64,000 bases of DNA from Ignavibacteriota bacterium (GCA_963787835.1 CAWBEI010000003.1:192001-256000); one strand, 5' to 3'; shown: positions 28,171 through 47,921, numbered from the stretch's first letter. Numbers and translations are program-made. Notes: generated by a model not told the origin, from the sequence alone.

Positions 28171-29583
28171 ATGCCGGTTTCTGAGGAATGCATGATATTG
28201 TTCTGTGAGGATTCTTCTGTGCAAAACAGAGGAACTTCGCGTGCCCCTTCCTTTCAGAATCGCGAAGTAAAAAAGCCTCTTATGGAGGTATTACAGCAAA
28301 ATCTCGGGAATGGGGTCAAGAGCGAGACGTGCGAGTCTCGTGATCTACTCGACCGGGTTCGCGACCTGAGAACCTCATCCTTCGATCCTGTAGTAGTGTG
28401 GTTAGAACAATCTGCTTTGGCGGATTCTGAGCGTCGAATCCGGGAATGCCTCGAGGAGATCGGTGACCGAAGATTATTCGTCGTGATTACAACAACGGAC
28501 GACGATAATAGAATGGGCAACCTTGCAAAGGGCATCCATCCCTACTTTCTGGCAAAACCCACCGGTTCTCTTTCCTCCGAGACACAGTTCTGGCGGGTAA
28601 TAAATGCGCTTGCAGTCGATATTTCTCGCTCCGTAGCTACCGAGAGCGAAGATGATTCGAGACCATCTGTTTTTCTTGCACCCGTCGCAGAGCCTATCGA
28701 GCAATTAGCGCGCAAACTGCGCCATGATCTGGAAAGCCGAGGGTTCAATGTCAGGCCAAAAACGAATTCAGAACTCTTGGATCAGGTGGAAGCACTTTTG
28801 GCAAGAAGCGCATTATCGGTACATCTTTTTGGACAAAGCAATGCAAGTCTTATCGAGCGCGGGGCACAGCAGTCGATGGATGTATTTCGTTCTACGCTTG
28901 CATTCGCAAAAGCTCATCCTGAATTTCGGGTGCTTGGGTGGACGGATGCTCAAGCTTCCGAGGCAGCGACCTCCATGCTCGGCGACCAGATCCTGCGCGA
29001 GTCGAAAGAATTCAGTCTTTCAGCCGAAGTCATTCAAAGTACCTTCGAGGATTTTAAGTCGCTTCTTTATGATCGGTTGGGACAATCGGTGTCTGCATCA
29101 CCTACTATGCCCCCTTTCACTTCTACACCAGTCGTAGGACCAAAGGAAATTCCTGTTGTGGCCGGTATCGCCCACGATGCTCCCGGAGCACAGTTATACG
29201 TCATTTATGACCCGCGCGATGCCGAGGCAGCAAAACCAGTAACGAACTTTCTTCAACATCAGGGTATCGGAGTTCTCTTGCCTGAGTTCCCAACAGAGCA
29301 AAATACGCTCCGTGCCATTCACAATGAGAATCTTCGCCGGTGCGATGGTGTGCTCATTGTCTATGGTGCTGTGCAGGAGCAATGGGTGCGCATGAAACAG
29401 CAAGACCTGCTTCGCGCAGCCGCACTCGGAAGAAAAAAGAATCTATCTGCAAAGGGTGTCTTTTTATGCTCCAACAAGACGGAAGGGAAACTTCGGTTTT
29501 CGGCACCGGACATGATGGTCATCAATGGCTTCGACTCCACAGCCAATCTCGCACCGTTCATCCAGCGACTATCGGCATCGTAA
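28171..29583 (+). CDS. TIR-like/DUF4062-like multidomain protein
   Basis: Two recognisable TIR-like alpha/beta units (SVFLA...LESRGFNV...LSVHLFG; LYVIYDPRD...LRRCDGVLIVYG...WVRMK) and a degenerate N-terminal unit; ends 1 bp before the STAND gene. Confidence 0.6.
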   Translation: MPVSEECMILFCEDSSVQNRGTSRAPSFQNREVKKPLMEVLQQNLGNGVKSETCESRDLLDRVRDLRTSSFDPVVVWLEQSALADSERRIRECLEEIGDRRLFVVITTTDDDNRMGNLAKGIHPYFLAKPTGSLSSETQFWRVINALAVDISRSVATESEDDSRPSVFLAPVAEPIEQLARKLRHDLESRGFNVRPKTNSELLDQVEALLARSALSVHLFGQSNASLIERGAQQSMDVFRSTLAFAKAHPEFRVLGWTDAQASEAATSMLGDQILRESKEFSLSAEVIQSTFEDFKSLLYDRLGQSVSASPTMPPFTSTPVVGPKEIPVVAGIAHDAPGAQLYVIYDPRDAEAAKPVTNFLQHQGIGVLLPEFPTEQNTLRAIHNENLRRCDGVLIVYGAVQEQWVRMKQQDLLRAAALGRKKNLSAKGVFLCSNKTEGKLRFSAPDMMVINGFDSTANLAPFIQRLSAS

Positions 29584-29584
29584 G

Positions 29585-32500
29585 ATGGAAGAAACACCGA
29601 TAGCAACATCCATAGAGACAGCCGGAGGCGGCGGAGGTATGAATCCGTTCCCGGGTTTGCGCCCGTTCGATATTTGGGAGAATTACCTTTTCTTCGGAAG
29701 AGATAAGCAGGTCGATTCACTACTACAGAAGCTTTCCGATCATCATTTTGTCGCCGTAGTTGGAACTTCGGGAAGTGGGAAGTCCTCGCTCGTACGCGCG
29801 GGATTATTGCCCGCGCTCTATGGTGGCTATATGGTATCCGCCGGCTCGACTTGGCATGTTGCTGTGATGCGGCCTGGATCGAGTCCCATTCAAAATCTTG
29901 CCGAAGCGCTTTCTACAGACGATGTTTTTGGCACCACATCCAACAGCAGTTCCCAAACGGAGAGTATAGCTCGCCGTGCGGCAATTTTGGAATCGAGTTC
30001 TCTGGGTCTCGTGCAACTGGTGCGCCAGGCGGCATTGCCTTCGGATGAAAATTTGTTGCTTGTTGTAGATCAGTTCGAAGAACTATTTCGATTCAAGCAA
30101 AATAGGTCGATCGCGGATGCCGCCAATGAAGCATCTGCATTTATCAAGTTACTGCTCGAAGCGGTGCATCAGCGGCAGCTTTTCGATCTATGTGCTTCTG
30201 ACACTTCGAAGCGATTTCCTCGGAGATTGTGCGCAATTCCGCGATCTTCCGGAAGCGATCAACGAAGGCCACTATCTCATTCCGCGTCTGCTTCGCGAAC
30301 AGCAACGCGAAGCGATACTTGGACCTGTTGCGGTCGGTGGCGGAAAAATTTCTCCGCGATTAGTACAGCAGCTTCTCAACGATCTCGGCGATAATCCCGA
30401 TCAGCTTCCGATCATGCAACATGCGCTCATGCGAACATGGGATAAGTGGGAGCACGAGCATGAGCCCGGGGAGCCGATCGACTTCCGGCATTATGAAGCC
30501 ATCGGGCGTATGCAGCACGCGCTCAGCGAGCATGCCGACGAGGCATTCAATGAACTTCCGAACGAACGAAGCAAAATGATCGCGGAGGCAATGTTCAAAT
30601 GCCTCACAATGCGTGGGCCAGATAATCGGGGAATTCGTCGTCCAACGAAAATTGCAGAGATCTGCGCAATTGCTGGTGCAGAGCCGAGCGAGGTGATCGA
30701 GGTCGTCGAATATTTCCGGCGACCGGGCAGATCATTCATTATGCCCCCGCATGGTGTGGAACTTACTCCCGAAACCGTGCTTGATATTTCGCATGAGAGC
30801 TTGATGCGCGTATGGGACCGGCTTGTCAAGTGGGTGGACGATGATGCTGTCTCCGCACAGATGTACCTCCGGCTCGTTGGCTCCGCCGATCTTTATGCAA
30901 AGGAGCAGGCCGGCCTTTGGCGCGACCCCGAATTGCAGCAAGCTGTCAACTGGCGCGATACCCACAAACCAAACGAGGCATGGGCCAATCGTTATTCCAC
31001 TGCATTTGGACCCTCGATGCAGTTCCTGATCGATAGCGTAAAACAACGTGAGCAGGAACATGTTGAAAAACGCCGTCGTCGCCGATTAGTAAATGCGTTC
31101 ATTGTGGCGTTCCTTGCCTTTGCCGGGGTGCTTACCGTCTGGGCACTAACAGAACGAAGTTCGGCTACGCGGAACGCCGCTTCCGCAGAACGCCTTCAGA
31201 AGGTTGCGCAAGATCAGGAACAGAAAGCCGAAAAAAGCGCCATCGTGGCTGACGAGCAAAAACGAAGCGCTATTGCGGCCTCGCACGAAGCGGAAGCTCA
31301 AAAGAAGCTGGCCGAGCAACAGCGCGCCTCTGCACTTTCAGAAAAACTGAATGCTGAAAATTCCCGCGCCGATGCGGAGCGATCGAGTGTTGTTGCAAAC
31401 GAACAACGCACTGCTGCTCAAGCCCAAAGCCATATCGCGGACAGCATGAAAAATCTTGCGGAAAAATCTGCGAGCGATGTATCGCGGCTCCGTTATCTTT
31501 CCATCGCCAAGGCGCTTGCAGTAAAAGCGGAACATCTTCAAACTTCTGACCACGATCTTGTAGGGCTTCTCGCATTACAAGCCTACCGGTTTAGTCATGA
31601 GAATGGCGGTTCGGCAATGGATCCCGATATTTTTGGCGCCCTGCATTCGGCGGATAAATTATTGAATGCATCCGCACTCTCACTTCAAGGGCCGCATGGG
31701 AGCAATATTCGTTCCGAACTCTTTCGAAACGATCAGGAACTTGTCTCCGCCAGCACCGATGGTAAGATCGTGGATTGGGATGCGGGTTCACCAAAGGCCA
31801 TTGGATCGCACTCGGCTTCTCGTACACTCGCGCTCAGCCCCGATGGTGCAACGATCTGTGCAGCGGGCAACGATGGCGTTCTTCATCTTTATTCCTTGAC
31901 GAACGGGTCTGTCTCCAATGTTCCTGTTGGAGTTTCCTATGTGGTGCAAGCTCATTATATTGATAATGCTTCCATAGCGCTTTTGAGTAACGATGGACGT
32001 ATTCACATTGTGAATCCCGCGAATGGAAGGGAGTCATCCATCCTTGCTTTGCCGGGGAACATTCGTTCCTTCGATCTAAACAGCAATATCCACGAGCTTG
32101 CCGCCGGTGACGAACTGGGAACGATCGGTATCTGGAATTTAACATCTCTGAATGGGCTAGCATCCAGAACCAGCTCCGTGAATGGCGCTATTTCTGCAAT
32201 CAATTTTAGCCGTGACGGCAAAATGCTTGCAGCTGGCACGCAGAAGGGCGCGATCTACCTTTGGAACACATCCGGCGAGCAGGGGCAATCGCTCCCAAAA
32301 CCGCAAGTAGCAACAACAACCGGTGAGCCGATTCACGCGATCGCCTTCAGTCCTGACGGCAGAATGTTGGCCAGTGGCAGTTCGAATGGCACGGTGCGCC
32401 TTTGGAATCCGGATCGTATGGCGGAGATACCCATCACGCTTGCCGATAACTCTGCATGGATGTGGTCGCTGGCCTTCAGCCCGGATGGCAGCACGCTTGC

Positions 32501-32672
32501 GGCCTCCAGTGCGGATAAATCCATTCATCTCATTCCAGTGCAGCCAGATGCAATTGTACGGCAAGTTCAACAGAAGATCGGACGAAATCTGACCCATAAG
32601 GAATGGGATCAATTCATAGGCTCTGATGTGCCTTATGCGGAAACGATTCCTGAGTTAGGAACGAAGGAATAA
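29585..32672 (+). CDS. nSTAND1-type NTPase - TM - coiled coil - WD40 repeat protein, split by a 1-nt frameshift near 30180
   Basis: NPFPGLRPF, FFGRD, Walker A GTSGSGKSS, Walker B VVDQFEELF, LTLRSDF, LPIMQHAL, ISHESL; TM after RRRRR; WD40 repeats AFSPDG; removing one T at 30180-30183 joins the frames into about 1028 aa. Confidence 0.88.
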
Positions 32673-35062: not shown

Positions 35063-38000
35063 TTACCTTGATCGTTGTGCGGCTTCATTTTGCTTGCGAA
35101 TTCGCCGGCAGAGCGTCGTGATCGCACCGCGCGCGATCTCGATGTTATCTATCATCAGATCGTAGAACACTTCCCGATCGAGCTTGAGGAGGGTCGTTTC
35201 TTCCAGTGCCGTTACGGATGCGGATCGAGGCTCGGGATCCAACAGCGCCATTTCACCTACCACATCCCGTGCGTGTAATTCGGAAAGTTGATGTTCGCCA
35301 TCATGAACGCGCACACGCCCCTCGACAATGATATACAGGCAGCTTCCTGTCTCGCCTTTCTCGATGATTCGCTCCCCAACAGAGGCATGAACTTCCTCCA
35401 GCGCCTGCGCAATATGAGAAAGCACCGGATCGGGCGTTTCGTGAAACAAATCGACCGTCTTTAATAAAATGACGCGTTCAAATAAATGTGGCATAGGTTC
35501 CTCGTCCTTGGACTTGTAGTAAAAATGAGCGACCGCAAGGGTCCAGGGTTCGTAAAAATGGTCATCATCGCGCAGGAGATTGTTCCATGCTATCTCGTGG
35601 GAGCCGTGTTCAAGATCCTGTGGAATGATGTCAGCCAGCGTGGTATGGTCGGTAATATGTGCTGAATGCTTAGCTCCATCATGATTGGTCCTTCTAAGAA
35701 AAAGCGTTGCTTCGAGCAATGCAACCACTTCTTTCGCAAGATCCGGAGCGAGGATCTGATCCAGAACTTCAAATGCGTTGGCATGATGCAGATGTTCGCC
35801 GATGAGCAGGCTGTCACGCACCCGGCGTAGCGTTACAGGATCATATTCAAGCTCCAATAGCATCAGCACGCGATCTGCCGCTTGTGCGACCTCATGCGAA
35901 AGCGTGCTTCGAAATAATTCCGACACTGGAAGATTTGTTGAATGTCCATTTGTGGATTCAAGAGAATGAATGATGGTAATAAGCTTGCGGACGCGCCGAA
36001 GTTCCTCAGCTATGATACGTGTGATGATATCAGAATCGTTTATTCGGATACCATTGGTCGTAAGCGCATGCAACGCAGCCAATCGCAGGGTTCCCAGCAC
36101 TCGCGGTGCTTCGTCGATGGTACCACCTACGGTTCCACCGCTGGACGGATTCGGCCAGGTTAACAGTGCGACCAATAACTGAATGGATTGTTCGGAGAAT
36201 GGTGCGTGCTCACCCTTACTCCAATGACCGAGCAGGCGCGCAATTCGTGGTAAGCGGGCACTTCCGACATGTCCCTCCTCGATGTGGTGCGTGAGGTGCG
36301 GCAGCACCGCATTGCCAAAGGCCTGCAGAGCATGCTCGATAAGGATGAGCGTTTGCCGAGTGGTTGCGGGTTGTAGATACAGATCGAGTATTGGTTCGAT
36401 AAGTTGCGGATGAGCAACCAGCGCGGATGCTCGAATCGCAGCAAGCCGCACTTCCGAATTCTCGTCTCGCAGAAGCGCAAGAAGGGAATGATAGAACTGA
36501 CGAACCCCAACTCCGCCTATGATCTTCGCGGCAGAAACGCGCACGCTGGGATCGGTGCTGTGCGCCATGGACTGCACGAATTCACCAGCCACAAGCACCC
36601 CGTCGATCCCTTTATGCTTGATGAGCCCGGCAAGCAGCCCTTCTCGCACGGGGAGTCGTTCATCATCGAGCCACTGCTTCATATCTTCGGCCTCAAGTTC
36701 CGGAGAAACGGCAGAATAGACCCGCAACGTTTGGCCCAGCATCGTTCCATCGTCGTGATTCAGATCGATTTTAGCGTTCGTTAACACAGCATCTAAAATG
36801 GTCTTAGCGCGAAGGCGTTCGGCGGCAGAAAATTCAAGATCATCCACGCGGCGTAGGGCAGCGATTCGAACGGACAATTCACCGTGTGCGAGCAAGTTGG
36901 GTAAGGCGTCGATGAGGAACGTATGTTCGGTCGGAGGAATAAGATGCAAGGCATATTCCACTTCCATCGGATGCGCGCTATGCAGCTTTTCTAAGACCAT
37001 GCTTCGCGCGGCATGATCCCAGACCAGCGCTGATGACATAAGCCGCCGGTGCTTCAACGCCCGGAGCACTGTTCTCTTGTATTCGCGGTCGAACCAAAGA
37101 AGTGTTCCCGCCCACGCTGCAAACACCCCAAGCATTACAAAACTGATCCCACGCAACGAGAAACCAATAGAAACGGAGAGCACATATAACAGGATGGACG
37201 CTGCACCTAACGCAAGCGGTTCAATGATTCCACCAATGGCTTGATGCCCGCGATGCTGAAGGTGTTTCGAGAGCGGTTGCATGGCAATGGCCAATGCAGG
37301 AACCTGAACGGCCTCCGACCACAACTCGACAAGCAACATTCCACCAATGAACGCCCAGATCATGGCGGGTGCGGCACCTGCGACCGATGCAGAATTTGCG
37401 CTAAAGATTAGTCCAGCAACGGTGGTAATGAGTAGTCCGATGGGCAGCACGATGATCGTTCTTGCGAGTCCGAACTTACTGAAGAGTCGCCCAACGACAC
37501 CGACTTTGAGCAACAGACTCGCCAGTTTTGCTACTCCGAGGAACAGTCCGATGAAATTTGCAACTTGTGTGAGGCTTTCTTTTCGTTCCTCGATCTCTCG
37601 AAGAAATCCAAAGTCGATACAGGTCGTTGCAAAGAGCGCCAGGAACGCAACCAGAGACACACTTGCGATATACGTATCCCGCCAAATGAACGTGAGTGAG
37701 TTTTGCTTCCCGTCATGATGCTTCGGCTGTTCGAACGCCGTTCTGGAATGATGTTTTTGTTTCCCATCTGTATGCATTGCCATCAGATGCGAGTAATTTG
37801 AAATGATTTGCTGTAGCACAAAGACACTTATCGCTGTTCCACCGGCGGAGAGAATCAACAACTGCGGTACTTTCAAGAACGAGGTCAATAGCGGGACAGA
37901 AAAATAGCCGAGTATTTTTGCAAGGAACGATCCTGAATCTATCAAACTGAACAGCCGCTTCCCTTGCCGGACATCGAAAAGATGCATGGGAAGCCCCCAA

Positions 38001-38440
38001 AACTCACTTTGAGCTACGAAGATCATAATACGGGACCACACCAATAGCCCAAACGCAATGGCGAGCGGGGGAATCTGCAAGGCGTATTCCTCCATTGCGT
38101 AGAAGGCGACCGTTCCGGCCACGAGCAGGATCAGCGCAAGCCGGAGCACTTGAAATTGACCGATCGCATGCTCTAAGCGTTCGGAGCTATACCCGATCAG
38201 AAGTTCAAGAACCGCAGCCGCCGCAAACGCGCACGGAAGATACACGATCGGAAAGGAATCAAGAAAGATCGGAAGTGCTGCTGAGATCAGATACGCAACC
38301 CCGACCCCGAGAAAGAACGAGTGCGTCCAGAGCAGCGCCACGGGGCGCATCTCATGCGAACGCAAGTTCAGGGTTTGAAGAACTACTCGCTTACCCCAGG
38401 ATGTTCGAAAAGAGCCTTGACGATTTGGAGATGAATCCAT
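35063..38440 (-). CDS. Npt/TLC-like nucleotide translocase (MFS fold) - HEAT repeats - cNMP-binding domain fusion
   Basis: About 12 TM with FWG...FDVRQGKRLFSLI motif; HEAT repeats (LLRDENSEVRLAAIRA); C-terminal cNMP domain with GEMALLDPEPRSASV; start ATG 38440. Confidence 0.82.
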   Translation of the reverse strand: MDSSPNRQGSFRTSWGKRVVLQTLNLRSHEMRPVALLWTHSFFLGVGVAYLISAALPIFLDSFPIVYLPCAFAAAAVLELLIGYSSERLEHAIGQFQVLRLALILLVAGTVAFYAMEEYALQIPPLAIAFGLLVWSRIMIFVAQSEFWGLPMHLFDVRQGKRLFSLIDSGSFLAKILGYFSVPLLTSFLKVPQLLILSAGGTAISVFVLQQIISNYSHLMAMHTDGKQKHHSRTAFEQPKHHDGKQNSLTFIWRDTYIASVSLVAFLALFATTCIDFGFLREIEERKESLTQVANFIGLFLGVAKLASLLLKVGVVGRLFSKFGLARTIIVLPIGLLITTVAGLIFSANSASVAGAAPAMIWAFIGGMLLVELWSEAVQVPALAIAMQPLSKHLQHRGHQAIGGIIEPLALGAASILLYVLSVSIGFSLRGISFVMLGVFAAWAGTLLWFDREYKRTVLRALKHRRLMSSALVWDHAARSMVLEKLHSAHPMEVEYALHLIPPTEHTFLIDALPNLLAHGELSVRIAALRRVDDLEFSAAERLRAKTILDAVLTNAKIDLNHDDGTMLGQTLRVYSAVSPELEAEDMKQWLDDERLPVREGLLAGLIKHKGIDGVLVAGEFVQSMAHSTDPSVRVSAAKIIGGVGVRQFYHSLLALLRDENSEVRLAAIRASALVAHPQLIEPILDLYLQPATTRQTLILIEHALQAFGNAVLPHLTHHIEEGHVGSARLPRIARLLGHWSKGEHAPFSEQSIQLLVALLTWPNPSSGGTVGGTIDEAPRVLGTLRLAALHALTTNGIRINDSDIITRIIAEELRRVRKLITIIHSLESTNGHSTNLPVSELFRSTLSHEVAQAADRVLMLLELEYDPVTLRRVRDSLLIGEHLHHANAFEVLDQILAPDLAKEVVALLEATLFLRRTNHDGAKHSAHITDHTTLADIIPQDLEHGSHEIAWNNLLRDDDHFYEPWTLAVAHFYYKSKDEEPMPHLFERVILLKTVDLFHETPDPVLSHIAQALEEVHASVGERIIEKGETGSCLYIIVEGRVRVHDGEHQLSELHARDVVGEMALLDPEPRSASVTALEETTLLKLDREVFYDLMIDNIEIARGAITTLCRRIRKQNEAAQRSR

Positions 38441-38468
38441 TATCGAACGATAACAAGCATAGAACGCG

Positions 38469-39086
38469 ATGCGTCCCAGCACCATGATTGTTCCTCCGCA
38501 TTCCCTCGTACCCCAGATCGAAACATTCTCACGCGAGATCATCGCCACATTACCGGCCGGATATACCTACCATTGTATCGAACACACCGAGATGGTCGTG
38601 AGGCACACAACGATGATAGCGGATTCGATCCAGCTAACCGAAGAGCAGACGGCACTGCTCATCATGGCGGCCTGGCTTCACGATGTGGGGTTTCGCATCC
38701 GGTATAAGGGGCATGAAAGAGATAGCTGCGTTGCTGCACGAGAAAAGCTTGCGGATGTACTAACTCCCGAGGATATGGCGACCATTGAAGAAGCCATTAT
38801 GGGAACGGAGATTCCTCAGCGCGCGACCCATCCTATCTCACAAGCGCTTTGCGACGCCGATCTGTTGTACTTAGGTGGCGATCACTTCTTTGATTGGAGC
38901 GCGCGGCTGCGCGAAGAGCATCAGAAGGTTCTTGGACGTGAATACAGCGATCAACAATGGATCGAATTTAACATTGACTTCGTCCGCAATCATACATTCT
39001 TCACAGCATTTGCTCGGGAACATTATGGCGAGGGTCTTTTAAAAAATCTGGATGCGTTGGAACTGATGAGAGCGGAGTCCCTCTGA
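38469..39086 (+). CDS. HD-domain metal-dependent phosphohydrolase
   Basis: YHCIEHT, AAWLHDVG, GHERDS, LCDADL. Confidence 0.88.
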   Translation: MRPSTMIVPPHSLVPQIETFSREIIATLPAGYTYHCIEHTEMVVRHTTMIADSIQLTEEQTALLIMAAWLHDVGFRIRYKGHERDSCVAAREKLADVLTPEDMATIEEAIMGTEIPQRATHPISQALCDADLLYLGGDHFFDWSARLREEHQKVLGREYSDQQWIEFNIDFVRNHTFFTAFAREHYGEGLLKNLDALELMRAESL

Positions 39087-39306: not shown

Positions 39307-39328
39307 GCGGAGGACCTGGGATTCGAAC
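39307..39328 (-). repeat. att copy of the tRNA-Ser(TGA) 3' end
   Basis: GCGGAGGACCTGGGATTCGAAC matches 47839-47860 with one mismatch. Confidence 0.88.
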
Positions 39329-39456
39329 GTCAAGTGCCGGAAGACAAACGATACCATTCTTCTTTACGTCTCTATGTTGCTACTATCCATTTGAACCATG
39401 GGTCCGGCTTGTGAATTTTGACAAATCGAACTTTTTTGATCTATTCAACTCTTTGC

Positions 39457-40044
39457 ATGACGATGGACTCGCGAACCGATCTCGACCTCCTAACTGCAAT
39501 TCAGGAACGCGCAGATAACAGCGCGTTGGGAGCTCTCTACGACCGTTATGGGCGAAAGGTCTATGTATTGGCCTATGGTATTTTGCGGTGCAAACCGGAC
39601 GCAGAGGACATACTGCAAGAGGTATTTGAGCGCGTTTGGAAGAAAAGCCACACCTATAATAGTACGCTTGGTAGCGTGAAAAGCTGGCTGCTCCGTATCA
39701 CACATAATCGTTCTATAAATAGGCTTAAAGCGCGTGCAATACGGGCAACCCATTCGGGCTACACTTCAGAGGGTGCGTATGGAGATTCCTTTACCGGCAG
39801 GATGCCAGAGAACATTTTAGATGCTTCCGAGATCGACATGGATTTCGACATTGGGATATTTGTTCGCAAAGCACTTGACTATTTACCCGAAGAGCAACGG
39901 CGGCTGATCGAACTGGCATTCTTCAAAGGGCTATCCCATTCGGAAATTGCTGAAACTGAGCAGATTCCGCTTGGCACCGTGAAGACTCGGATACGCAGCG
40001 GCATCGCTCGATTACGAACGGAATTAAAATTTTTAAGAACGTAG
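39457..40044 (+). CDS. ECF sigma-70 factor (RpoE/SigK-like)
   Basis: ALYDRYG, AEDILQEVF..VW, SWLLRITHNRSIN, region 4 GLSHSEIAE...PLGTVKTRIR. Confidence 0.93.
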   Translation: MTMDSRTDLDLLTAIQERADNSALGALYDRYGRKVYVLAYGILRCKPDAEDILQEVFERVWKKSHTYNSTLGSVKSWLLRITHNRSINRLKARAIRATHSGYTSEGAYGDSFTGRMPENILDASEIDMDFDIGIFVRKALDYLPEEQRRLIELAFFKGLSHSEIAETEQIPLGTVKTRIRSGIARLRTELKFLRT

Positions 40045-40149
40045 CGAACATTTGCGATAAAAATAGTAATAAGGAACAATACAAGAATCCGAGAGCATAG
40101 AGATAGCTGTAATAAAAAGAATAAGCTCTCGATCAGCGATCAGCACATA

Positions 40150-40782
40150 ATGGCGGAACAGAAACAACAGAGCAATGGAAACGGTCAAGACCCTTTAATG
40201 GGCAAAGAGCCACTAATGGGCAAAGAGCCACGCATCTCCAATGATGCGTTGCTCGGCTATCTTCAGGGCGAACTTCGGCTTCCGGACATGGAAGCGTTCG
40301 AGGCCGCCTCTGTAAATGATCCTGAACAAATGGAGTCGATTCGAGTCTATTCCGAATTGCTCGATTCCTTAACGGATCTATTGCCTGAACCTGAGATGCC
40401 TATCGGAGACGATATGCGGACGCGGATAATGTCTATTGCAGACTCCAAGCCGATCTCCCAAGTCATTCGTGCTCACCAAGGCCAGTGGATCGATTCTGGT
40501 ATGCCGGGATTTGAGTTCAAACTGCTGTATCAGGATCCGGAATCGAAGAAGAGTACGGTCCTCGCTCGTATCGCGGCAGGTGCACGAATGCCGCATCATC
40601 GCCATCAAGGCACAGAGGAATGTCTTATTATCGAAGGCAGCTTATGGACGGATGGCGTTCTGCTTGAAGCCGGAGATTTTATCGTGACGCAGGATCAAAC
40701 CGAGCATGAAGATACGTGGTCGCCTCATGGAGCGCTGGCACTTATAAAAACATATCTGGAGGATGAAATATTATCGAGTTAA
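40150..40782 (+). CDS. anti-sigma factor with ChrR-like cupin domain
   Basis: Follows the ECF gene; N-terminal LLGYLQGEL anti-sigma helix; cupin HHRHQGTEECLIIEG...GDF...H. Confidence 0.8.
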   Translation: MAEQKQQSNGNGQDPLMGKEPLMGKEPRISNDALLGYLQGELRLPDMEAFEAASVNDPEQMESIRVYSELLDSLTDLLPEPEMPIGDDMRTRIMSIADSKPISQVIRAHQGQWIDSGMPGFEFKLLYQDPESKKSTVLARIAAGARMPHHRHQGTEECLIIEGSLWTDGVLLEAGDFIVTQDQTEHEDTWSPHGALALIKTYLEDEILSS

Positions 40783-40804
40783 CCATTTTAGCTTTGTTTC
40801 TGAG

Positions 40805-40836
40805 AAAGGCCGGAGAAAACTCCGGCCTTTTGTATT
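40805..40836 (+). terminator. intrinsic terminator
   Basis: AAAGGCCGGAG-AAAA-CTCCGGCCTTT plus T-rich tail. Confidence 0.8.
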
Positions 40837-40842
40837 TTGATA

Positions 40843-40867
40843 AATCCAGTGACCCAATGTAGGTGTA
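40843..40867 (+). promoter_or_regulatory. candidate ECF promoter for the DUF4331 operon
   Basis: AATCC-N16-TGTA about 75 nt upstream of ATG 40942; resembles RpoE/SigK-type ATCC...CGTA promoters. Confidence 0.35.
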
Positions 40868-40941
40868 TTAGTCAGAGCAATCCTCTTTTTTATCGTCAGG
40901 CAAAAGAGTGGAAAGTCTTTTAACTAATCACAAACATTTCT

Positions 40942-43026
40942 ATGCGTACACTTGCTAACTCATTCCGACTGCTCTTACCCTCAGCGGCGGTGCTTGCAGT
41001 AGTTCTCTTTGCCGCTCCTCAGGCCCAGGCGTCGAGCCATCGCGAAGCGCCACTGATCTCGAACGATCCCCTTGCGGATAACACGGATCTCTATGCCTTC
41101 GTATCTCCGGACGATCCGAATATGGTCACGATCATCGCGGACTACATCCCGTTTGAAGCTCCGCAAGGCGGACCGAACTTCGCAACGTTCGGGACAAACA
41201 TTCATTATGAAGTCCACATCAAAAATAATGCGATGACGGCAGGTGATGACATCACCTACCGGTTCACATTTTCCCAAACGAATCAGGATCCGACCACTTT
41301 CTTCAATATTCGTCTCGGAAAGCAAAATCTGATGACGACGTATGATTGCGAGAAATCAACCGATGGTGGAAACACCTGGACGACGATCGTGGCAAATGGA
41401 ACGGTTCCACCGCCGAACATCGGACCGCGTTCGATCGAGGGTGCTGCTGGACTTAATACGCCTTACGCGACCTTGATGCAAAATGCCGTTGCGAACGCTT
41501 CTGGCACTGGCGGCGAGACGATCTTTTGCGGACCGATCGATGACCCATTCTTTGTCGATTTAGGTGGAATCTTCGATCTAGGCGGATTTAATAAGCATGG
41601 CAAGGACGGTCTTGCCGGTTTCAACTGCCACACGATCGCGCTCAAAATTCCTATCTCTTCGCTTCAGAAAGATGGAAAGACTGTTTCGGAGGCTGCTAAT
41701 ATCTTAGACGGTAATTTCGTGATCGGCGTGTGGGCTTCTGCTTCGCGCATGAAATTCCGCACGATCAATGGTGATGGCACATACACCGATAGCGGTTCCT
41801 ATGTGCAGGTCAGCCGTCTTGGAATGCCACTTACGAACGAAGCCATCATTCCGATCGGAATGAAAGACAAGTGGAACTCTGGAACTCCCTATACCGATGC
41901 ATCCGGTGCCTACAATGCTAATTTCGTAAACCCGGAATTAGCACTCTATGTCGGAAATGGCGCGTATAGCGCTGCCGTTCCAGGACTTGCAAATCTTCGC
42001 CTCGATACCAATTCGCTCGGCGGAGGCTTCGATTTCCGAAATGGAAAGATAGGACTTTATGGCCTCTATGGTGCTGCGGCAACAAAGGGCACTGCCCTTG
42101 ATACTGCAAGTTTCGGGAAGATCCTTCTGGAACCAAATGCTCCCCGTTCGGTCGATCTACTGCCGATCTTCTACACCGGCGTGCCGAATATCGCGCCGTA
42201 TCAACTTGCAACCGGCAAAGCAGGTAATCCACTCGCAGCAGGTAAACCGTTCATCAATAATTTCCTGCCGACGCTCGGCGATATGCTGCGATTGAACATG
42301 GCCGTTCCCGCTACACCGCGAAACAGCCCTGATTTCAGCAGCGAAGGCCTCATTCAGGCGGCTGTGCTTGGCTTGACCGATTCACGCTTCAATGTGAATG
42401 CCACACTTCAGGATATTCCCAACATGGATGGGTTCCCGAACGGGCGACGCCTGGAAGACGATGTTACGACCATCGAAATGCAAGCCGTCGGCGGCCTGGT
42501 CTTGAATGCTATCGGCCTCTGGACGGACGATTATGTGCCCGGCTCATCGAAATCGCCGGTAACTCCATACCTTCTTGGCAAATTAGGCTGGGACGCCGGC
42601 GTAACGAAAAACGATGTACCGCTCCAAGCAACGTTTCCATACGTTGCCGCACCGCATCGTGGTTCGCTCGGACTAATGACCGATACTTCCACGATCGTCA
42701 TGGGAACTGCGGATGTTCACAATATCCCAGAGTCCATTGGTATTCATGCACCGGGCGGTCAGTTCACCGGTCAGAATTATCCGAATCCTGCGACAAGCCA
42801 ATCGACAACATTCCAATTCCATATCTCCGCCGTAGCTCCGGTGAGTGTAACGATCGTCGATGTCAATGGGATGCAGGTTGCGACGGCTTTCGCGCAACAG
42901 TGCACTCCTGGCGATTACACCTCCGCGTGGCAACTCCCACAAGGGCTTGCCTCCGGTGATTATTTTGCGGTGCTCTCGGTGGATGGGGAGCAAGTTTCGA
43001 CAATGCGATTTGTCGTAAACAAATAA
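40942..43026 (+). CDS. DUF4331 family protein with T9SS type-A CTD
   Basis: AQA-SSHREAP...DNTDLYAF, DDPFFVDLG, QVSRLGMPL, GFPNGRRLEDDV, FPY; CTD QNYPNP...ASGDYF. Confidence 0.9.
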   Translation: MRTLANSFRLLLPSAAVLAVVLFAAPQAQASSHREAPLISNDPLADNTDLYAFVSPDDPNMVTIIADYIPFEAPQGGPNFATFGTNIHYEVHIKNNAMTAGDDITYRFTFSQTNQDPTTFFNIRLGKQNLMTTYDCEKSTDGGNTWTTIVANGTVPPPNIGPRSIEGAAGLNTPYATLMQNAVANASGTGGETIFCGPIDDPFFVDLGGIFDLGGFNKHGKDGLAGFNCHTIALKIPISSLQKDGKTVSEAANILDGNFVIGVWASASRMKFRTINGDGTYTDSGSYVQVSRLGMPLTNEAIIPIGMKDKWNSGTPYTDASGAYNANFVNPELALYVGNGAYSAAVPGLANLRLDTNSLGGGFDFRNGKIGLYGLYGAAATKGTALDTASFGKILLEPNAPRSVDLLPIFYTGVPNIAPYQLATGKAGNPLAAGKPFINNFLPTLGDMLRLNMAVPATPRNSPDFSSEGLIQAAVLGLTDSRFNVNATLQDIPNMDGFPNGRRLEDDVTTIEMQAVGGLVLNAIGLWTDDYVPGSSKSPVTPYLLGKLGWDAGVTKNDVPLQATFPYVAAPHRGSLGLMTDTSTIVMGTADVHNIPESIGIHAPGGQFTGQNYPNPATSQSTTFQFHISAVAPVSVTIVDVNGMQVATAFAQQCTPGDYTSAWQLPQGLASGDYFAVLSVDGEQVSTMRFVVNK

Positions 43027-43115
43027 GATCCATCCTCTATCTCGCTTGGTTGCGCGTGGCATCTCGGATGCCACGCGCACCCTTCCGAAAAAATAACCAT
43101 ATCATTTTTATTGCA

Positions 43116-44456
43116 ATGAATCGTAGATCAATGCTCTGGATCGTTCCGATCGCAGTAGTAGCAATCGCTTCCATCGTGTTCCTTGCTTGGCCTTCTAAAA
43201 AAACGGCGCTTGCTATGCCGGATCTCCTGCCCCGACCTGGAGAAACAACCCCTTCTGCGGAATTCTTGAAAAGCGAGGCGGATGTAAAAAAATACCGCAT
43301 AGAGCTTGCTGAACATCCAGATAAAAGTGAGGATTATGTTAAGCTTGCCGAGATTTATTTGCAAGAGTCGCGGGTGACGGCGAATCACCATTTCTACATT
43401 CCAGTGGCTTCCGCGCTTCTCGACGAAACGCTTCGTCGGGACACGAATAATTTCGAGGCGCTCGTCACGAACGCGGGACTTCAAATGACGCTGCATCAAT
43501 TTCAGAAGGCCGATGACATGGTCACCAGCGCTATTCGTCAAAATCCGTATAACGCCACTTCGTATGGTGTGCTCTGCGATGCGAATGTTGAGCTTGGGAA
43601 TTATCATGAAGCGGTGACCGCATGTGACAGCATGATGTCCAAGCGCCCCGATCTCCGTTCCTACGCACGAGCATCGTATTTGCGTCAGCTTATGGGAAAG
43701 GACTCCTCGGCCATTCAGGCCATGCTGCTGGCCGCCGATGCCGGTCTTTCCGGAAGCGAGAGCCGATCCTGGGCGCTCTATCAGCTTGGTAACCTTTTTA
43801 TTCAAGCTGGCAAGTTCGACACGGCCGCGTTTATTTTCAATGGGATTTTAGAAGAGCGCCCTGGTTATGCCTATGCAAAGAGCGGACTTGCAATGATCCA
43901 CCTTGCGAAGGGCGAATATACGGATGCGATCCGCGAACTTGCATCGGCCATGCAGGCATTGCCGGAACATATTTTTCTCGAACAGCTTGCCGACGTTTAT
44001 ATCGCAATGGGAGATACCGCGAATGCGCGGACGTTAGAAACCAGGGTATTCGCCGCATTCGATCAGCATGAACAGGATGGCTGGAATGTCGATCGCGAAT
44101 ACGCGCAGTTTGCCGCCGACCATAATGTGCGATTGGGCGAAGCTGTCACTCGAGCAGAACGGGAATGGAAACGCCGCCCGAATAATGCGGATGCCATTGA
44201 AACATACGCGTGGTCGCTCTTGAAAAATGGCGATGCTCAAAAAGCGGAAACCATCATGGAGTTCGGATTGAAGTCCGGGATCGTCACACCGACGATGCAC
44301 TATCATGCAGCAGTTATTTATGCGTCGTTGGGCAGAACTGCCGAGGCTCAGGAAGAATGGCGATCCGCCATCCTTCGAGTGCCGTGTGTAAAACCGGCGC
44401 TGGTGCGTGACGCGAAATCGTTCCTGACGAACAGGGAACGCCTTTCCATGAACTAA
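43116..44456 (+). CDS. membrane-anchored tetratricopeptide repeat protein
   Basis: N-terminal TM, multiple TPRs (DANVELGNYHEA, AWSLLKNG); start ATG 43116. Confidence 0.85.
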   Translation: MNRRSMLWIVPIAVVAIASIVFLAWPSKKTALAMPDLLPRPGETTPSAEFLKSEADVKKYRIELAEHPDKSEDYVKLAEIYLQESRVTANHHFYIPVASALLDETLRRDTNNFEALVTNAGLQMTLHQFQKADDMVTSAIRQNPYNATSYGVLCDANVELGNYHEAVTACDSMMSKRPDLRSYARASYLRQLMGKDSSAIQAMLLAADAGLSGSESRSWALYQLGNLFIQAGKFDTAAFIFNGILEERPGYAYAKSGLAMIHLAKGEYTDAIRELASAMQALPEHIFLEQLADVYIAMGDTANARTLETRVFAAFDQHEQDGWNVDREYAQFAADHNVRLGEAVTRAEREWKRRPNNADAIETYAWSLLKNGDAQKAETIMEFGLKSGIVTPTMHYHAAVIYASLGRTAEAQEEWRSAILRVPCVKPALVRDAKSFLTNRERLSMN

Positions 44457-44467
44457 CGCGCATACCA

Positions 44468-44962
44468 ATGCTCTCGTTGATCTTTGCACGGATGTTTTTA
44501 CTATGTGCCTTTCATGCGGTGCACATTAGTTACGGTGATTTTTCCGTCACGCAAAATTCAGTGCATGACCGATCATCCGTGCTGAGTGGTAGTTTTACGT
44601 TTTACAAAGACGATTGGGCGAAGGCAACCGAGCATTGGTTCGGTCGATCGATGACAAACGAGCCGAAGGCAGTACAGGACTGGATGGAATCCGAATATCT
44701 CAAGGGGCATGTCCGCTTTTGGTTGGATGGCTACAGCACTCCGGTTCACTTCGATCTGCGGGTAAAAGAAGATGCGGCGCAATCGATCACTTACGAGTTT
44801 ACCGCTCCAGTTTCCTCCGATCATCATGTGGTCATCATAGATTCGCGCGCGGTGCTTTCTGAATATAGCGATCAGATGAATTTGATGACCGTGAAAGTTC
44901 GCGGCAAATCGACGAACATTATTTTTACAAGCGATCATACAACCTCAATCATAAAACTTTAA
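44468..44962 (+). CDS. DUF6702-like secreted protein
   Basis: Short signal, then HAVHISY; C-terminal SDQMNLMTV; precedes HupE/UreJ. Confidence 0.6.
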   Translation: MLSLIFARMFLLCAFHAVHISYGDFSVTQNSVHDRSSVLSGSFTFYKDDWAKATEHWFGRSMTNEPKAVQDWMESEYLKGHVRFWLDGYSTPVHFDLRVKEDAAQSITYEFTAPVSSDHHVVIIDSRAVLSEYSDQMNLMTVKVRGKSTNIIFTSDHTTSIIKL

Positions 44963-44967
44963 CGATC

Positions 44968-45525
44968 ATGTTCACACAATTTATCCAGATCGGGTTCCAG
45001 CATATTCTCGAGGGGTATGATCACTTGCTTTTTCTTACGGCACTTGTGCTCGTAAGCCGCCGTTGGCAGGATCTACTAAGTGTTATTTCCGCATTCACGA
45101 TCGCACATACAACGACGATCGTGCTGTGCGTGTTCGGCGTACTCTCGCTTCCGTCCCTTCTTACAGAATCACTTATTGCGGCCTCGATCGCTTATGCAGG
45201 AATTGAAAATATGTTTCGAAAAAATTTCGATACGCGTTGGGTGATCGCCGGAGCATTCGGGCTTATTCATGGCGCGGGGTTTTCCGGGCATCTTGTCAGT
45301 GTGTTACAACCGTTGCTTGGGACGGGCCAAGTATGGGGACCGATCTTCGGTTTTACCTTTGGCATCGAAATGGGGCAGCTTGCTGTGATCACGCTCATCT
45401 ATCCCGCAGTGATGCTGGCTCGTTATTTCGGGAGAGAGCGGGTTTTTGTGCGAGCATTCTCCGCGCTTATTGCGATGGCAGGTACCGCCCTTCTAATAAT
45501 GCGGCTCTCCGGCTCTTCTTTGTGA
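44968..45525 (+). CDS. HupE/UreJ family membrane protein
   Basis: GFQHILEGYDHLLFL, AFTIAHT, ESLIAASI, FGLIHGAGF, GIEMGQL. Confidence 0.9.
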   Translation: MFTQFIQIGFQHILEGYDHLLFLTALVLVSRRWQDLLSVISAFTIAHTTTIVLCVFGVLSLPSLLTESLIAASIAYAGIENMFRKNFDTRWVIAGAFGLIHGAGFSGHLVSVLQPLLGTGQVWGPIFGFTFGIEMGQLAVITLIYPAVMLARYFGRERVFVRAFSALIAMAGTALLIMRLSGSSL

Positions 45526-45573
45526 TCGGATCGAACATCCATTCGACGCAATGGGCTGTATAACATTCGTCAC

Positions 45574-47631
45574 ATGATACGAATGTTAATCCTCCGAACC
45601 TCCTTCGCAGCTCTATTCATTTCCGCGGCTCTTTCAGGGTTATGGAATCCGGCACACGCCCAATCCAAAGTAGACACGATCCATGAAAAGGAGCAAGTAG
45701 TCACCGTCACCGCAGAGCGCCCGCTTTCTGCGGCCTCGGACAAAAGTTTCCGCGATTCTGATTTTGAGCTTCGACCACGTAACTCCGCGCAAGATATGCT
45801 CCGGCTCGTTCCGGGACTGGTGCTTGCACAGCATGCGGGCGGCGGAAAAGCGGAACAGATCTTTTTGCGCGGATTCGATGCCGATCACGGAACCGACGTG
45901 AATATCTCCGTTGACGACGTTCCAGTTAATATGCTTAGTCATGGACATGGGCAAGGTTATGCCGATCTTCATTTTATCATACCAGAAACGATCCAGGAAG
46001 TAGATGTGGTCAAAGGTCCGTATTCTCCTCGCTATGGCGATCTTGCAACGGCAGGGGTGATTGCCTTCCAAACGAAAGATTCGCTCAAATATAACGAGTT
46101 GAAACTTGAAGGTGGGTCCTTCGATGAATATCGAGCGCTCGCGCTCATCAAAGGCCCATCTTCACAAACGATCCAATCCTATTTTGGCACCGATCTATTC
46201 TATACGCGAGGACCGTTCGACGTTGCCCAGGATTTTCATCGTCTTAATCTGTTCGCAAAGACCGATGCTGCGCTCAGCGACGATGCAAAACTTTCCGCGA
46301 GTCTTTTTTCTTTTAGTTCCTCCTGGAATGCGAATGGCCAGATTCCGGAGCGCGCCGTCGCAGATGGCCTCATCGACCGTTTCGGTTCGCTCGATTCAAC
46401 AGAAGGCGGCGCAACATCACGCACCACCGCCAACATCACATACACATCAGGAGGAGAATCCCCTCTGACACTTACCGCCTCTTACACCGATTATCATTTT
46501 CGGCTGTTTAGCGATTTTACTTTTTATCTTGTTGATACCACTCAAGGAGACGAAGTGGAACAGACAGATTCACGCACCCTGCTTGCGTTTCGGGGGGAAC
46601 GAACACTTCCCTGGATCTTAGGCGACGCCATCATGAATACAAAGATCGGTGTCAGCACACGAAGCGATGATATTCAAGCTGCCATCTATCATGATTCTGC
46701 GCGCGTCCGACTCAACAATGTAGTAGATGCGGCCATTCAGGAGCGGGAAACAGGGCCATATATTCAGCAGGAGATCGGGCTTGGATGGATTCAATTCATT
46801 CTTGGGCTTCGCGCAGACTATGCAACGGTCGATGTACAGAATTTGCTAAATTCCGGCGCACAGCCAAACGGTATCAACCAGCAGATCATCCTTTCGCCGA
46901 AAGCGAATGCAAGCATTCCAATAAGCAATGACGCCACAGCATTTCTGAATTTTGGCTATGGGTTTCATTCCAACGACGCGCGTGCCATTGTGCAATCTCC
47001 GGGAATTCCGACCTTACCGCGAGCGCTTGGCAGCGAGATCGGTTTACGGTATGGCGAACCTTCGGAATTCTTTTCCTGCTCATCCTCGCTATGGTATCTT
47101 TACCTTCAAAGCGAACTTGTCTGGGACGGCGATGAAGGAACACTTATTGCACAAGGAAGTACACGTAGGGAAGGCATCGATCTCGAAGCACGCATTCGTC
47201 CAACAGAATGGCTCACGTTCGGGGGGGATGCAACGATTTCCGAGGGGCGGTTCGTCGATTCTGCAGTTGGCAATAATTACATTCCTCTTGCACCAAATTT
47301 TACGCTTACGGGAAATGCCGTCGCCAAGTGGGATGATTTTTCCGCTGCCTTGCGCTTGAGACACGTCGGCGACCGACCTGCCAATACCGACAATTCTATT
47401 GTTGCAAAGGGGTATTCGATTTTCGATCTTTCACTCACCTATCATACAGGGCCCTATGAATTGTACGCAAACGTCGAGAACGTATTCAACACAGTTTGGA
47501 ACGAGGCTCAATTCGCGACCGTAAGCCGTATTTATGTTCACGGCGTGCTTGAGGCAAATCCGGTGGATGATCTCAGCTTTACGGCTGGAACCCCAATCTC
47601 CGTAAGGACAGGAATCGCCTTTAGTTTTTGA
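45574..47631 (+). CDS. TonB-dependent receptor
   Basis: Plug QHAGGGKAEQIFLRGFDADHGTD...SHGHGQGYADL, VVKGPY; barrel strands; C-terminal F. Confidence 0.92.
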   Translation: MIRMLILRTSFAALFISAALSGLWNPAHAQSKVDTIHEKEQVVTVTAERPLSAASDKSFRDSDFELRPRNSAQDMLRLVPGLVLAQHAGGGKAEQIFLRGFDADHGTDVNISVDDVPVNMLSHGHGQGYADLHFIIPETIQEVDVVKGPYSPRYGDLATAGVIAFQTKDSLKYNELKLEGGSFDEYRALALIKGPSSQTIQSYFGTDLFYTRGPFDVAQDFHRLNLFAKTDAALSDDAKLSASLFSFSSSWNANGQIPERAVADGLIDRFGSLDSTEGGATSRTTANITYTSGGESPLTLTASYTDYHFRLFSDFTFYLVDTTQGDEVEQTDSRTLLAFRGERTLPWILGDAIMNTKIGVSTRSDDIQAAIYHDSARVRLNNVVDAAIQERETGPYIQQEIGLGWIQFILGLRADYATVDVQNLLNSGAQPNGINQQIILSPKANASIPISNDATAFLNFGYGFHSNDARAIVQSPGIPTLPRALGSEIGLRYGEPSEFFSCSSSLWYLYLQSELVWDGDEGTLIAQGSTRREGIDLEARIRPTEWLTFGGDATISEGRFVDSAVGNNYIPLAPNFTLTGNAVAKWDDFSAALRLRHVGDRPANTDNSIVAKGYSIFDLSLTYHTGPYELYANVENVFNTVWNEAQFATVSRIYVHGVLEANPVDDLSFTAGTPISVRTGIAFSF

Positions 47632-47839
47632 CGAGGTGTTGGAGAACCATTAATTAATTCTTTCCAATATGTGGTCTGCATGGGCAAATCGGTAGACCAT
47701 TTTTATCCCCACAATCCCGAGATGAGCAAAAGCATTGACTCGACAGAATTTGTTGCCACATTGTTGCCAAACAAATTAAATTAGAAAATTTTGAAAGGCA
47801 ATAAATCATTGATATTGAATGACTTACGGCGATTTTCTG

Positions 47840-47921
47840 CGGAGGACCCGGGATTCGAACTCGGAAGCCCTTGCGGGCGGCAGTTTTCAAGACTGCTGCA
47901 GTACCATTGTGCCAGTCCTCC
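47840..47921 (-). tRNA. tRNA-Ser(TGA)
   Basis: Reverse complement: acceptor GGAGGAC/GTCCTCC-G, anticodon arm GCAGT-CT TGA AA-ACTGC, variable arm GCCC-GCAA-GGGC, T-loop TTCGAAT; one A-C mismatch in the T-stem. Confidence 0.93.

Follow-up and report, generated by a model that had tools for sequence, protein, structure and literature searches.

A DUF4331-centered Ignavibacteriota cassette that may load metal onto an exported protein with a predicted Ser-Ser-His N-terminus

A seven-gene cassette was analyzed at positions 39457-47631 of a 64,000-nucleotide stretch of DNA from an Ignavibacteriota bacterium (GCA_963787835.1 CAWBEI010000003.1:192001-256000), here called the window. By sequence comparison, it is a real, widespread, and uncharacterized envelope module that is unusually complete here. 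Tentatively, and a little short of even confidence, we read it as a maturation cassette in which uptake genes would make and metal-load one exported protein, DUF4331, with a predicted nickel-binding (or copper-binding) Ser-Ser-His end.

Seven same-strand (+) open reading frames (ORFs) fill the block, with intergenic gaps of 105, 159, 89, 11, 5, and 48 bases. In order, they encode an extracytoplasmic function (ECF) sigma factor, a ChrR-type cupin anti-sigma factor, DUF4331 with a type IX secretion system (T9SS) tail, a tetratricopeptide repeat (TPR) protein, DUF6702, HupE/UreJ-2, and a TonB-dependent receptor. A first-pass annotation had described these genes as island cargo encoding an ECF-controlled, T9SS-linked pathway for capture of nickel, copper, and cobalt. 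The features it named were all confirmed in place, including the AQA|SSH site, the T9SS C-terminal domain, the HAVH motif, the plug histidines of the receptor, the HupE/UreJ histidines, and the cupin. Its inventory was right for the genes it named and omitted the TPR gene (43116-44456).

The DUF4331 gene (40942-43026, +) encodes a 694-aa protein that matches PF14224 with 417 bits over model positions 1-421 of 421. Its N-terminal region reads AQA|SSHREAP, and cleavage is predicted at Ala30|Ser31, which gives a signal peptide at 40942-41031 and a predicted mature start, Ser-Ser-His, at 41032-41040. Cleavage sites were read from sequence pattern and conservation, not from a signal-peptide predictor. 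Conservation of the SSH register in DUF4331 alignments, a check proposed with the first-pass annotation, was found at both close and distant range. Ser-Ser-His is preceded by Ala, Gly, or Ser in 120/120 close homologs, and X-X-His occurs in 118 of 150 distant representatives at 50% clustering (114 SSH, 3 ASH, and 1 TSH). The other 32, which had no pattern match, are nearly all N-terminal fragments; one has Ser-Ser-Tyr and one has Ser-Asn-His, which the pattern missed. By pattern, the -1 residue of signal-bearing homologs is Ala, Gly, or Ser in 229/229 (120/120 plus 109/109). Nine of the 118 X-X-His members are signal-less and begin Met-Ser/Thr-Ser-His. Because Met is removed before Ser or Thr, these forms are predicted to reach the same His3 register by a second maturation route. 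Plasmid DUF4331 proteins from Proteobacteria and Actinomycetota have the Ala|SSH start in 8/8. Other Bacteroidota have a split DUF4331 with an exported N-half and a lipoprotein C-half, followed by TPR. The split-form N-halves begin Ala-Asp-His or Ser-Asp-His (n = 17; the search pattern required His). The idea of an N-terminal nucleophile was rejected, since Ala, not Ser, is the first residue in 16 of the 17 split forms.

The Xaa-Xaa-His N-terminus, or amino-terminal copper and nickel (ATCUN) motif, is known from albumin and from peptides as a site for Cu(II)/Ni(II). By pattern and conservation, the predicted mature tip of DUF4331 follows its sequence rule, with His at position 3 and no Pro at positions 2-3. 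Among 98 diverse members, His3 is kept in 97 and is the only His conserved above 70%. About 25 Asp, Glu, Arg, Asn, or Gln positions across 480 residues are at least 90% conserved in these members, including Glu5, Asp12, Asp16, Asp19, Asp176, Asp182, Arg262, Asn269, Glu270, Asp375, Arg472, Asp476, and Asp477. In the long form, conservation of Ser1 and Ser2 is 95-98%, which is more than an ATCUN site requires. This conservation fits a free amine and His3 as predicted metal ligands, perhaps with carboxylates, and on alignment it is more than a simple carrier needs.

The TonB-dependent receptor (45574-47631, +; profile search) has a His-rich plug whose histidines (QH87...DH105...SH123GH125G) are kept in 38-39 of 39 relatives. 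It is homologous over 90-100% of its length (about 31-33% identity) to receptors in nickel-enzyme clusters, and His87, His105, His125, and His465 are common to 7/7 receptors compared. These receptors may be the Bll6948/Daro_3944 family. A sequence search of solved structures returned only distant receptors. The receptor matches 52 plasmid records at E ≤ 1e-30; six loci were hand-picked from these, two of them chosen as hydrogenase plasmids, and 4/6 lie beside hydrogenase, NikR, or HoxN-type genes, one is near cobalamin genes, and one is uninformative. Among 20 phylum receptor loci unlinked to DUF4331, one (in genome G294) ends a urease operon, one precedes a HupE/UreJ-2 fusion, and one diverges from genes for a Fur-family regulator and a catalase-peroxidase; for the others, nothing metal-related was seen in the 51 of 141 neighbors scanned. 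No NikR gene is present in the cassette. From this context, nickel is the best guess for the receptor metal, and cobalt and copper are possible. In four of the six plasmid loci and in G294, the receptor family adjoins the nickel enzyme or regulator it serves; in the cassette, DUF4331 is the only candidate client in that position.

Two observations concern the region upstream of the receptor gene. The window has a second, weaker promoter-like site (45534-45562; score 7.4) 40 bases upstream of it. In 12 other loci (L041:7081-7443, L067:15078-15455, L049:15248-15643, and others), small exported proteins of 120-160 aa that are absent from the window are encoded just upstream of the receptor gene. 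One type is His-rich, most of these proteins end in a proline-rich run, and three tested had no Pfam match. They resemble the CutF/CruR metal-sensing leader proteins described in 10.1101/2022.11.11.516240.

DUF6702 (44468-44962, +; profile search) is an exported protein matching PF20420 with 35.6 bits against a cut-off of 24. HAVH stands at residues 16-19 (His16-Ala-Val-His19), as had been noted. The signal is short and Phe precedes His16, so the case for His at mature position 1 is weaker here than for two relatives, which show Ala|His-Asp-Ile-His. The Pseudomonas aeruginosa DUF6702 protein is reported in the main text of PMC12537917 to bind Ni (5.6 pM), Co, and Cu via His1, with His28 and His32 as further ligands, preferring Ni over Co and Cu, without enzyme activity. 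By analogy, the window protein is a predicted His-tipped Ni/Co/Cu carrier. The finding of Ni/Co-type parts around DUF4331 is thus upheld by both this published binder and the receptor family found beside nickel genes.

HupE/UreJ-2 (44968-45525, +; profile search) is a 185-aa inner-membrane protein that matches HupE_UreJ_2 (PF13795) with 134 bits; His12, His19, His47, and His101 are each present in 25/25 relatives. No match was returned for it by a sequence search of solved structures. In Bacteroidota, most HupE/UreJ-2 proteins begin with a signal followed by Ala|His, and the window copy lacks that His-tipped extension and starts at the membrane domain. DUF6702 is encoded by a separate gene 5 bases upstream, and it also stands before HupE/UreJ-2 in two relatives; on this ground, DUF6702 appears to supply the His tip that the window HupE/UreJ-2 lacks. 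In two other loci (L035:9171-9935 and L065:4700-5464), a 254-aa membrane protein, TauE/SafE-like by inspection, follows DUF4331 where TPR-DUF6702-HupE is inverted.

DUF4331 matched 3,942 clusters at 50% identity and also occurs in Proteobacteria and Actinomycetota. Among 301 sampled phylum genomes, DUF4331 is found in 37 and the receptor in 34, which divide into 22/37 DUF4331 genomes versus 12/264 others. Seventy-four loci from related genomes, many of them cut by contig ends, include TPR in 58, the receptor in 41, HupE/UreJ-2 in 27, ECF in 11, cupin in 5, and DUF6702 in 2. Two DUF4331 copies are present in most of these loci, and the T9SS tail is absent from the first copy. The TPR gene is the most constant partner (58/74 loci), and the 30 genomes that have it are all among the 37 with DUF4331. 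HupE/UreJ-2 occurs in 22/40 DUF4331 genomes. Eight of 35 plasmid DUF4331 loci were opened: four have HupE/UreJ, one has a 'nickel transporter,' two are in type II secretion system (T2SS) clusters, and one has TPR alone.

In a search of the window's genome (97.9% complete), NiFe hydrogenase, urease, LarC, and ARD all went unmatched, with controls positive. Two tetrapyrrole methylases are present, by inspection too few for a cobalamin pathway. A hydrogenase-family match was found in 4/37 DUF4331 genomes (2 full length) versus 125/264 others (some weak), and urease in 2/40 DUF4331 genomes. That a nickel-type receptor accompanies DUF4331 where the usual nickel enzymes are missing suggests that DUF4331 is the consumer of the metal.

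The same parts could instead form a scavenging pathway, in which the surface DUF4331 tip would catch Ni, Cu, or Co and hand it to the receptor, DUF6702, and HupE/UreJ-2 for cytoplasmic import. Each envelope layer is represented in the cassette, DUF6702 binds Ni, Co, and Cu without enzyme activity, and His-tipped domains fused to HupE/UreJ-2 have been proposed to feed permeases (PMC12537917, main text). Permeases adjoining DUF4331 in other phyla start Ala|His (5/5 read), a NicO-family protein takes the place of HupE in G019 and Streptomyces, and heme-copper oxidases are a possible copper sink. Nevertheless, a usual nickel sink was found neither in this genome nor in most DUF4331 genomes, and the core of the module is DUF4331 plus TPR, with receptor and permease optional. 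The ECF-type promoter, the sigma pair that also precedes a globin in G010, and the conservation of DUF4331 far past its tip also fit poorly. Scavenging is a serious contender that we nonetheless consider unlikely. Capture and import for the cell, the purpose given in the first-pass annotation, is not well supported, as no usual nickel sink was found and the permease is missing from 18/40 DUF4331 genomes. The alternative offered there, that the transport genes metallate DUF4331 as an enzyme, fares somewhat better as to metallation, and its enzyme part is without a fold match. Metal loading of DUF4331 is favored over scavenging into the cell because there is no hydrogenase, urease, LarC, or ARD match here, the receptor is in 22/37 DUF4331 genomes, and a hydrogenase match is in 4/37; on sequence evidence, it fits the comparative data somewhat better.

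Regulation was examined from the sigma pair and the promoter. The ECF sigma factor (39457-40044, +; an alternative longer TTG start at 39418 is possible) is nearest to SigK/PRK12519-type models, all under their cut-offs, and only the ECF superfamily model passed. The soluble anti-sigma factor (40150-40782, +; profile search) has a C-terminal ChrR-like cupin (PF12973, 64.8 bits) with His150, His152, Glu156, and His186. Its N-terminal 100 residues have no His or Cys and so no zinc motif, and it scores 43.9 against the ChrR family TIGR02451, under the cut-off of 124.5. An 11-bp hairpin followed by a T-rich run (40805-40830, +), read by eye from the sequence and not by folding, is terminator-like. 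Because it follows the anti-sigma gene, the last five genes look like an operon separate from the sigma pair. A perfect 13-bp hairpin without a T run (43051-43079, +), also read from the sequence, lies between the DUF4331 and TPR genes and is a possible, putative transcript-stabilizing element.

A de novo motif, ATCC-N16-CGTA, was found in 33 of 103 DUF4331 upstream regions, with 0.0 expected (5 block shuffles), and a looser form in 59/101. The predicted ECF promoter of the window's DUF4331 operon (40841-40869, +) reads AATCC, a 16-base spacer, and TGTAT. It has T for C in the -10 box (TGTAT versus CGTA), and its score of 9.7 falls slightly below the lowest among the training sites (9.9). Of the 16 genomes in the family that have this anti-sigma factor, 12 have DUF4331 directly downstream, and the motif is present in 10/12. 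No motif was found upstream of the sigma gene (score 1.5). In a regulon search of 2,981 ORFs, the promoter pattern occurred in 7 upstream regions, no more than with control spacers (3-11). Sequencing runs yielded contigs only; one RNA run had short pieces, mostly 90-95% alike, over four genes, and no expression was shown. A supplement lists DUF4331 as a context gene of ECF18s13 and ECF214s1 (PMC7826278 supplement). ECF control of the DUF4331 operon, as originally proposed, is likely on the strength of the conserved ECF-type promoter that precedes DUF4331 genes.

The signal sensed by the pair is another matter. The cupin had been proposed as a metal sensor, a role that is weak given that 5/12 linked anti-sigmas lack the cupin His pair and that a congener's pair precedes a globin. 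As a dedicated metal sensor it was rejected as likely, on the missing His pair and on the RskA-type anti-sigmas that accompany DUF4331 in its place elsewhere. The closest sigma/anti-sigma pair (66% and 62% identical), in G010 (L123:9909-11794), stands ahead of a secreted truncated globin whose gene has this promoter motif at an equal distance. In G082 (L015), a globin likewise comes before DUF4331. In G015, genes for an FAD (flavin adenine dinucleotide) amine-oxidase-family protein, carotenoid desaturase-like by inspection, and an aldehyde dehydrogenase diverge from the sigma pair. ChrR-type cupins sense singlet oxygen or organic peroxide, according to the same supplement (PMC7826278).

These stress-type contexts would fit a metal sink induced by oxidative or envelope stress, in which the operon would tie up loose Cu or Ni outside the cytoplasm, DUF4331 would be a surface sponge, and the permease would possibly be an exporter. 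Moreover, 18/55 DUF4331 representatives have at least two His near the C-terminus. We consider this reading improbable, as an energized outer-membrane importer fits detoxification poorly and one tip per 545 residues is a poor sponge.

Export of DUF4331 is supported by its tail (about 42778-43020), which passes the T9SS type A model TIGR04183 (30.6 bits versus a cut-off of 23) and falls below the Pfam PF18962 cut-off (18.8 versus 27). The genome encodes the T9SS component SprA (match in a 2438-aa frame), the component searched for. Tail and SprA together uphold the T9SS link of the first-pass annotation. Outward routing differs by lineage: a T9SS tail, T2SS clusters in two Rhodobacterales plasmids, and a C-terminal anchor in Streptomyces. 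In these two plasmids (L185:5238-13548 and L190:5259-12825), DUF4331 lies inside the type II secretion cluster, with TPR and permease not nearby. Where DUF4331 occurs in tandem pairs (for example L064:8151-9896 and L075:9917-11680, among many), a conserved aromatic motif closing with Arg-Phe is often found at the C-terminus of the first, tail-less copy and may be a docking signal for the TPR partner.

A predicted model of mature DUF4331 (mean confidence pLDDT 94.6, pTM 0.94; residues 1-10 at 76) is a beta-sandwich with a helical C-half. Residues 1-10 score 47 in the model of the isolated N-half of a split form, which has a shallower alignment. Because they score lower there, the models hint that the tip may pack against the C-half. 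No match for DUF4331 was found by a sequence search of solved structures or, with both models, by Foldseek at E ≤ 0.001. A wide structural search with both models gave no Z of 8 or more, which does not show that the fold is new. Matches were repeatedly CBM9/DOMON-like: Sas6 (Z 7.3 and 6.3), CBM9 (5.2), the glucodextranase C-terminal domain (Z 6.2, root-mean-square deviation [rmsd] 3.4, 106 aligned, 24% identity), and the ethylbenzene dehydrogenase gamma subunit (Z 5.2 and 5.7).

DUF4331 could on this basis be a DOMON/CBM9-like heme- or glycan-binding surface protein, with a structural or heme-binding N-terminus and with nickel-type genes that are incidental or serve another target. Both models return such domains repeatedly (Z 5.2-7.3), and the conservation of Ser1 and Ser2 exceeds the needs of ATCUN. 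The same Z values are tied with unrelated immunoglobulin domains, sequence support is lacking, and neither another His nor a Met is conserved that could serve heme. This reading would also leave unexplained why the gene is repeatedly linked to Ni/Co permeases of two unrelated families and to a Ni-type receptor. We regard this as the least probable of the readings.

Under the favored loading of DUF4331, a stress-type ECF sigma factor, freed from its cupin anti-sigma factor, would transcribe the five-gene operon from 40841-40869. Ni(II) would enter the periplasm through the TonB receptor and be held by the His-tipped N-terminus of DUF6702. The membrane-anchored TPR protein (43116-44456, +; N-terminal anchor, profile search), which carries an invariant His, would form with the adjoining HupE/UreJ-2 a folding and loading station for DUF4331, after signal peptidase has freed the amine. 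Loaded DUF4331 would then exit via the T9SS to act on the cell surface, where its role would probably be that of a metalloenzyme or be redox-protective. In a bolder version, DUF4331 would belong to a new class of nickel enzymes that are secreted, have their site at an X-X-His N-terminus, and share no fold with any enzyme of solved structure. A dedicated receptor, a His-tipped chaperone, a TPR loader, and a membrane protein would mature it in the periplasm, and a stress sigma factor would induce it in aerobes without another nickel enzyme. We consider this version distinctly unlikely.

Several points weigh against metal loading of DUF4331. Tested HupE/UreJ proteins are reported as importers in PMC11247825, and a Sec-exported client would not obviously need an inner-membrane importer. 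HupE/UreJ-2 is missing from 18/40 DUF4331 genomes and a receptor match from 15/37. Only 2 of the 20 unlinked receptor loci had Ni-type neighbors among the 51 of 141 neighbors scanned; the plasmid receptor contexts come from hand-picked loci. The co-occurrence counts are among kin and partly compare aerobic with anaerobic lineages, so contrasts are inflated. Nickel superoxide dismutase had no match in the genome, nor in the controls, a search thus without a positive control; glyoxalase I and other minor Ni/Co users were outside the nickel-user search. Two heme-copper oxidase subunits are encoded as copper sinks. No enzyme fold matched DUF4331: the best Z was 7.3 (rmsd 4.9, 200 aligned), and the N-half gave 6.3-6.4, within the background range.

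Known nickel enzymes are few, and those that are well known are assembled in the cytoplasm. If the cassette does load an exported protein, this would explain nickel-type receptors and permeases in aerobic Bacteroidota without hydrogenase and urease, and HupE/UreJ-2 and DUF6702 would gain a client. Cultured DUF4331 carriers (Dyadobacter, Fibrella, and Rufibacter) make a test cheap, with one protein and one His mutant. The parts are of known kinds; their combination and the central protein are not described in searchable papers, to which subscription papers and further supplements may add. DUF4331 has no main-text mention in the searchable literature, and only two context notes in one supplement (PMC7826278). 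New here are the insertion bounded by attachment (att) repeats, the receptor's nickel contexts, the failure to find the usual nickel clients, and the observation that the same sigma pair can also stand before a globin.

Flanking the cassette is a 22-bp direct repeat that corresponds to the 3′ end of tRNA-Ser; 100 shuffles produced 0 such matches. The left copy, an att remnant with 1 mismatch, is at 39307-39328 and forms the left boundary of the inserted block. The right copy, at 47839-47860, lies in tRNA-Ser(TGA) (47839-47921, -), the integration site and right boundary. DUF4331 is present in only 1/14 other genomes of the genus, G002, where DNA similarity (92%) to the window begins exactly at base 39307. 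The seven G002 cassette proteins are 92-99% identical to those of the window, versus 88% for PckA, and a third att copy further left bounds different cargo. No cassette gene was found in the 9-20 kb adjoining the same tRNA in G001, G008, and G014. A library scan revealed no integrase among the seven ORFs, and composition does not shift (GC 0.499 versus 0.497). In a relative about 90% alike, one contig has the HD gene of the left flank linked to the sigma gene by other sequence in place of the att segment, which counts against a clean boundary. The sigma pair and DUF4331 occupy different sites in other genera of this family. The flanking repeat and patchy distribution support the island claim; an integrase and deviant GC are missing. 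The block is therefore an insertion left stranded; its DNA does not look foreign, and the cassette is one that many members of the family have. The nearest homologs are labeled Candidatus Kapabacteria and Bacteroidota, and the genome holds one DUF4331, SprA, TonB proteins, and 8 receptor plug domains.

Other features near these insertions were also recorded. In G002, an older insertion at the same tRNA-Ser site (L119:7456-18236), between two further att copies, carries a TPR-LuxR regulator and WD40 and Kelch/T9SS-tail proteins, with DUF2961 nearby. Just left of the window's att repeat, 35063-39086 encodes a large membrane protein that combines HEAT repeats with a cyclic-nucleotide-binding domain; this gene is divergent from the HD-domain gene and patchy among congeners. 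At 29525-32672, a STAND-type NTPase ORF (29525-30394) overlaps a WD40-repeat-like ORF (30117-32672) in another frame, which looks like one frameshifted gene.

The closest known systems are the Anglerase (Ang-1/Ang-2)::HupE/UreJ-2 fusions and the DUF6702 'metal sequesterase' of PMC12537917, which involve the same two families and likewise place an exported domain with a His tip beside the HupE/UreJ-2 membrane domain. The cassette encodes DUF6702 and HupE/UreJ-2 in two neighboring genes and not as a fusion, as if an anglerase-permease had been split. The proteins in the main text of PMC12537917 use His at position 1, whereas DUF4331 has His at position 3, and that model is without the TPR, receptor, and ECF components, all three of which the cassette has. 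That main text, supplements aside, does not mention DUF4331, ATCUN, or the cassette operon.

The regulatory pair resembles RpoE-ChrR (ECF11) in its soluble anti-sigma factor with a C-terminal ChrR-like cupin, and the promoter resembles the ECF11 consensus GTGATC/CGTA (PMC7826278 supplement). Unlike RpoE-ChrR, the anti-sigma factor lacks the His/Cys zinc motif and the sigma factor is nearer SigK-type models. For SigK-RskA (ECF18/19/214) pairs, a soluble cupin anti-sigma factor is described for ECF19s19 in the same supplement (PMC7826278).

Like ATCUN peptides, DUF4331 has a predicted free amine and His3, with no Pro at positions 2-3. Unlike them, it is a folded bacterial protein of 545 residues that also has Asp16/Asp19 and, at position 5, a conserved acidic residue; for this reason, its tip may form a structured pocket instead of the classic chelate by the peptide backbone. 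The same logic, with uptake genes beside the metal client, is seen in nickel-enzyme clusters that have their own TonB receptor and NiCoT permease (the hox cluster of Cupriavidus necator pHG1, Afipia pHCG3, the Bradyrhizobium hup locus, and the G294 urease operon). In contrast to these clusters, the cassette lacks hydrogenase, urease, NikR, and HypAB, and its candidate client is an uncharacterized protein exported by Sec and T9SS.

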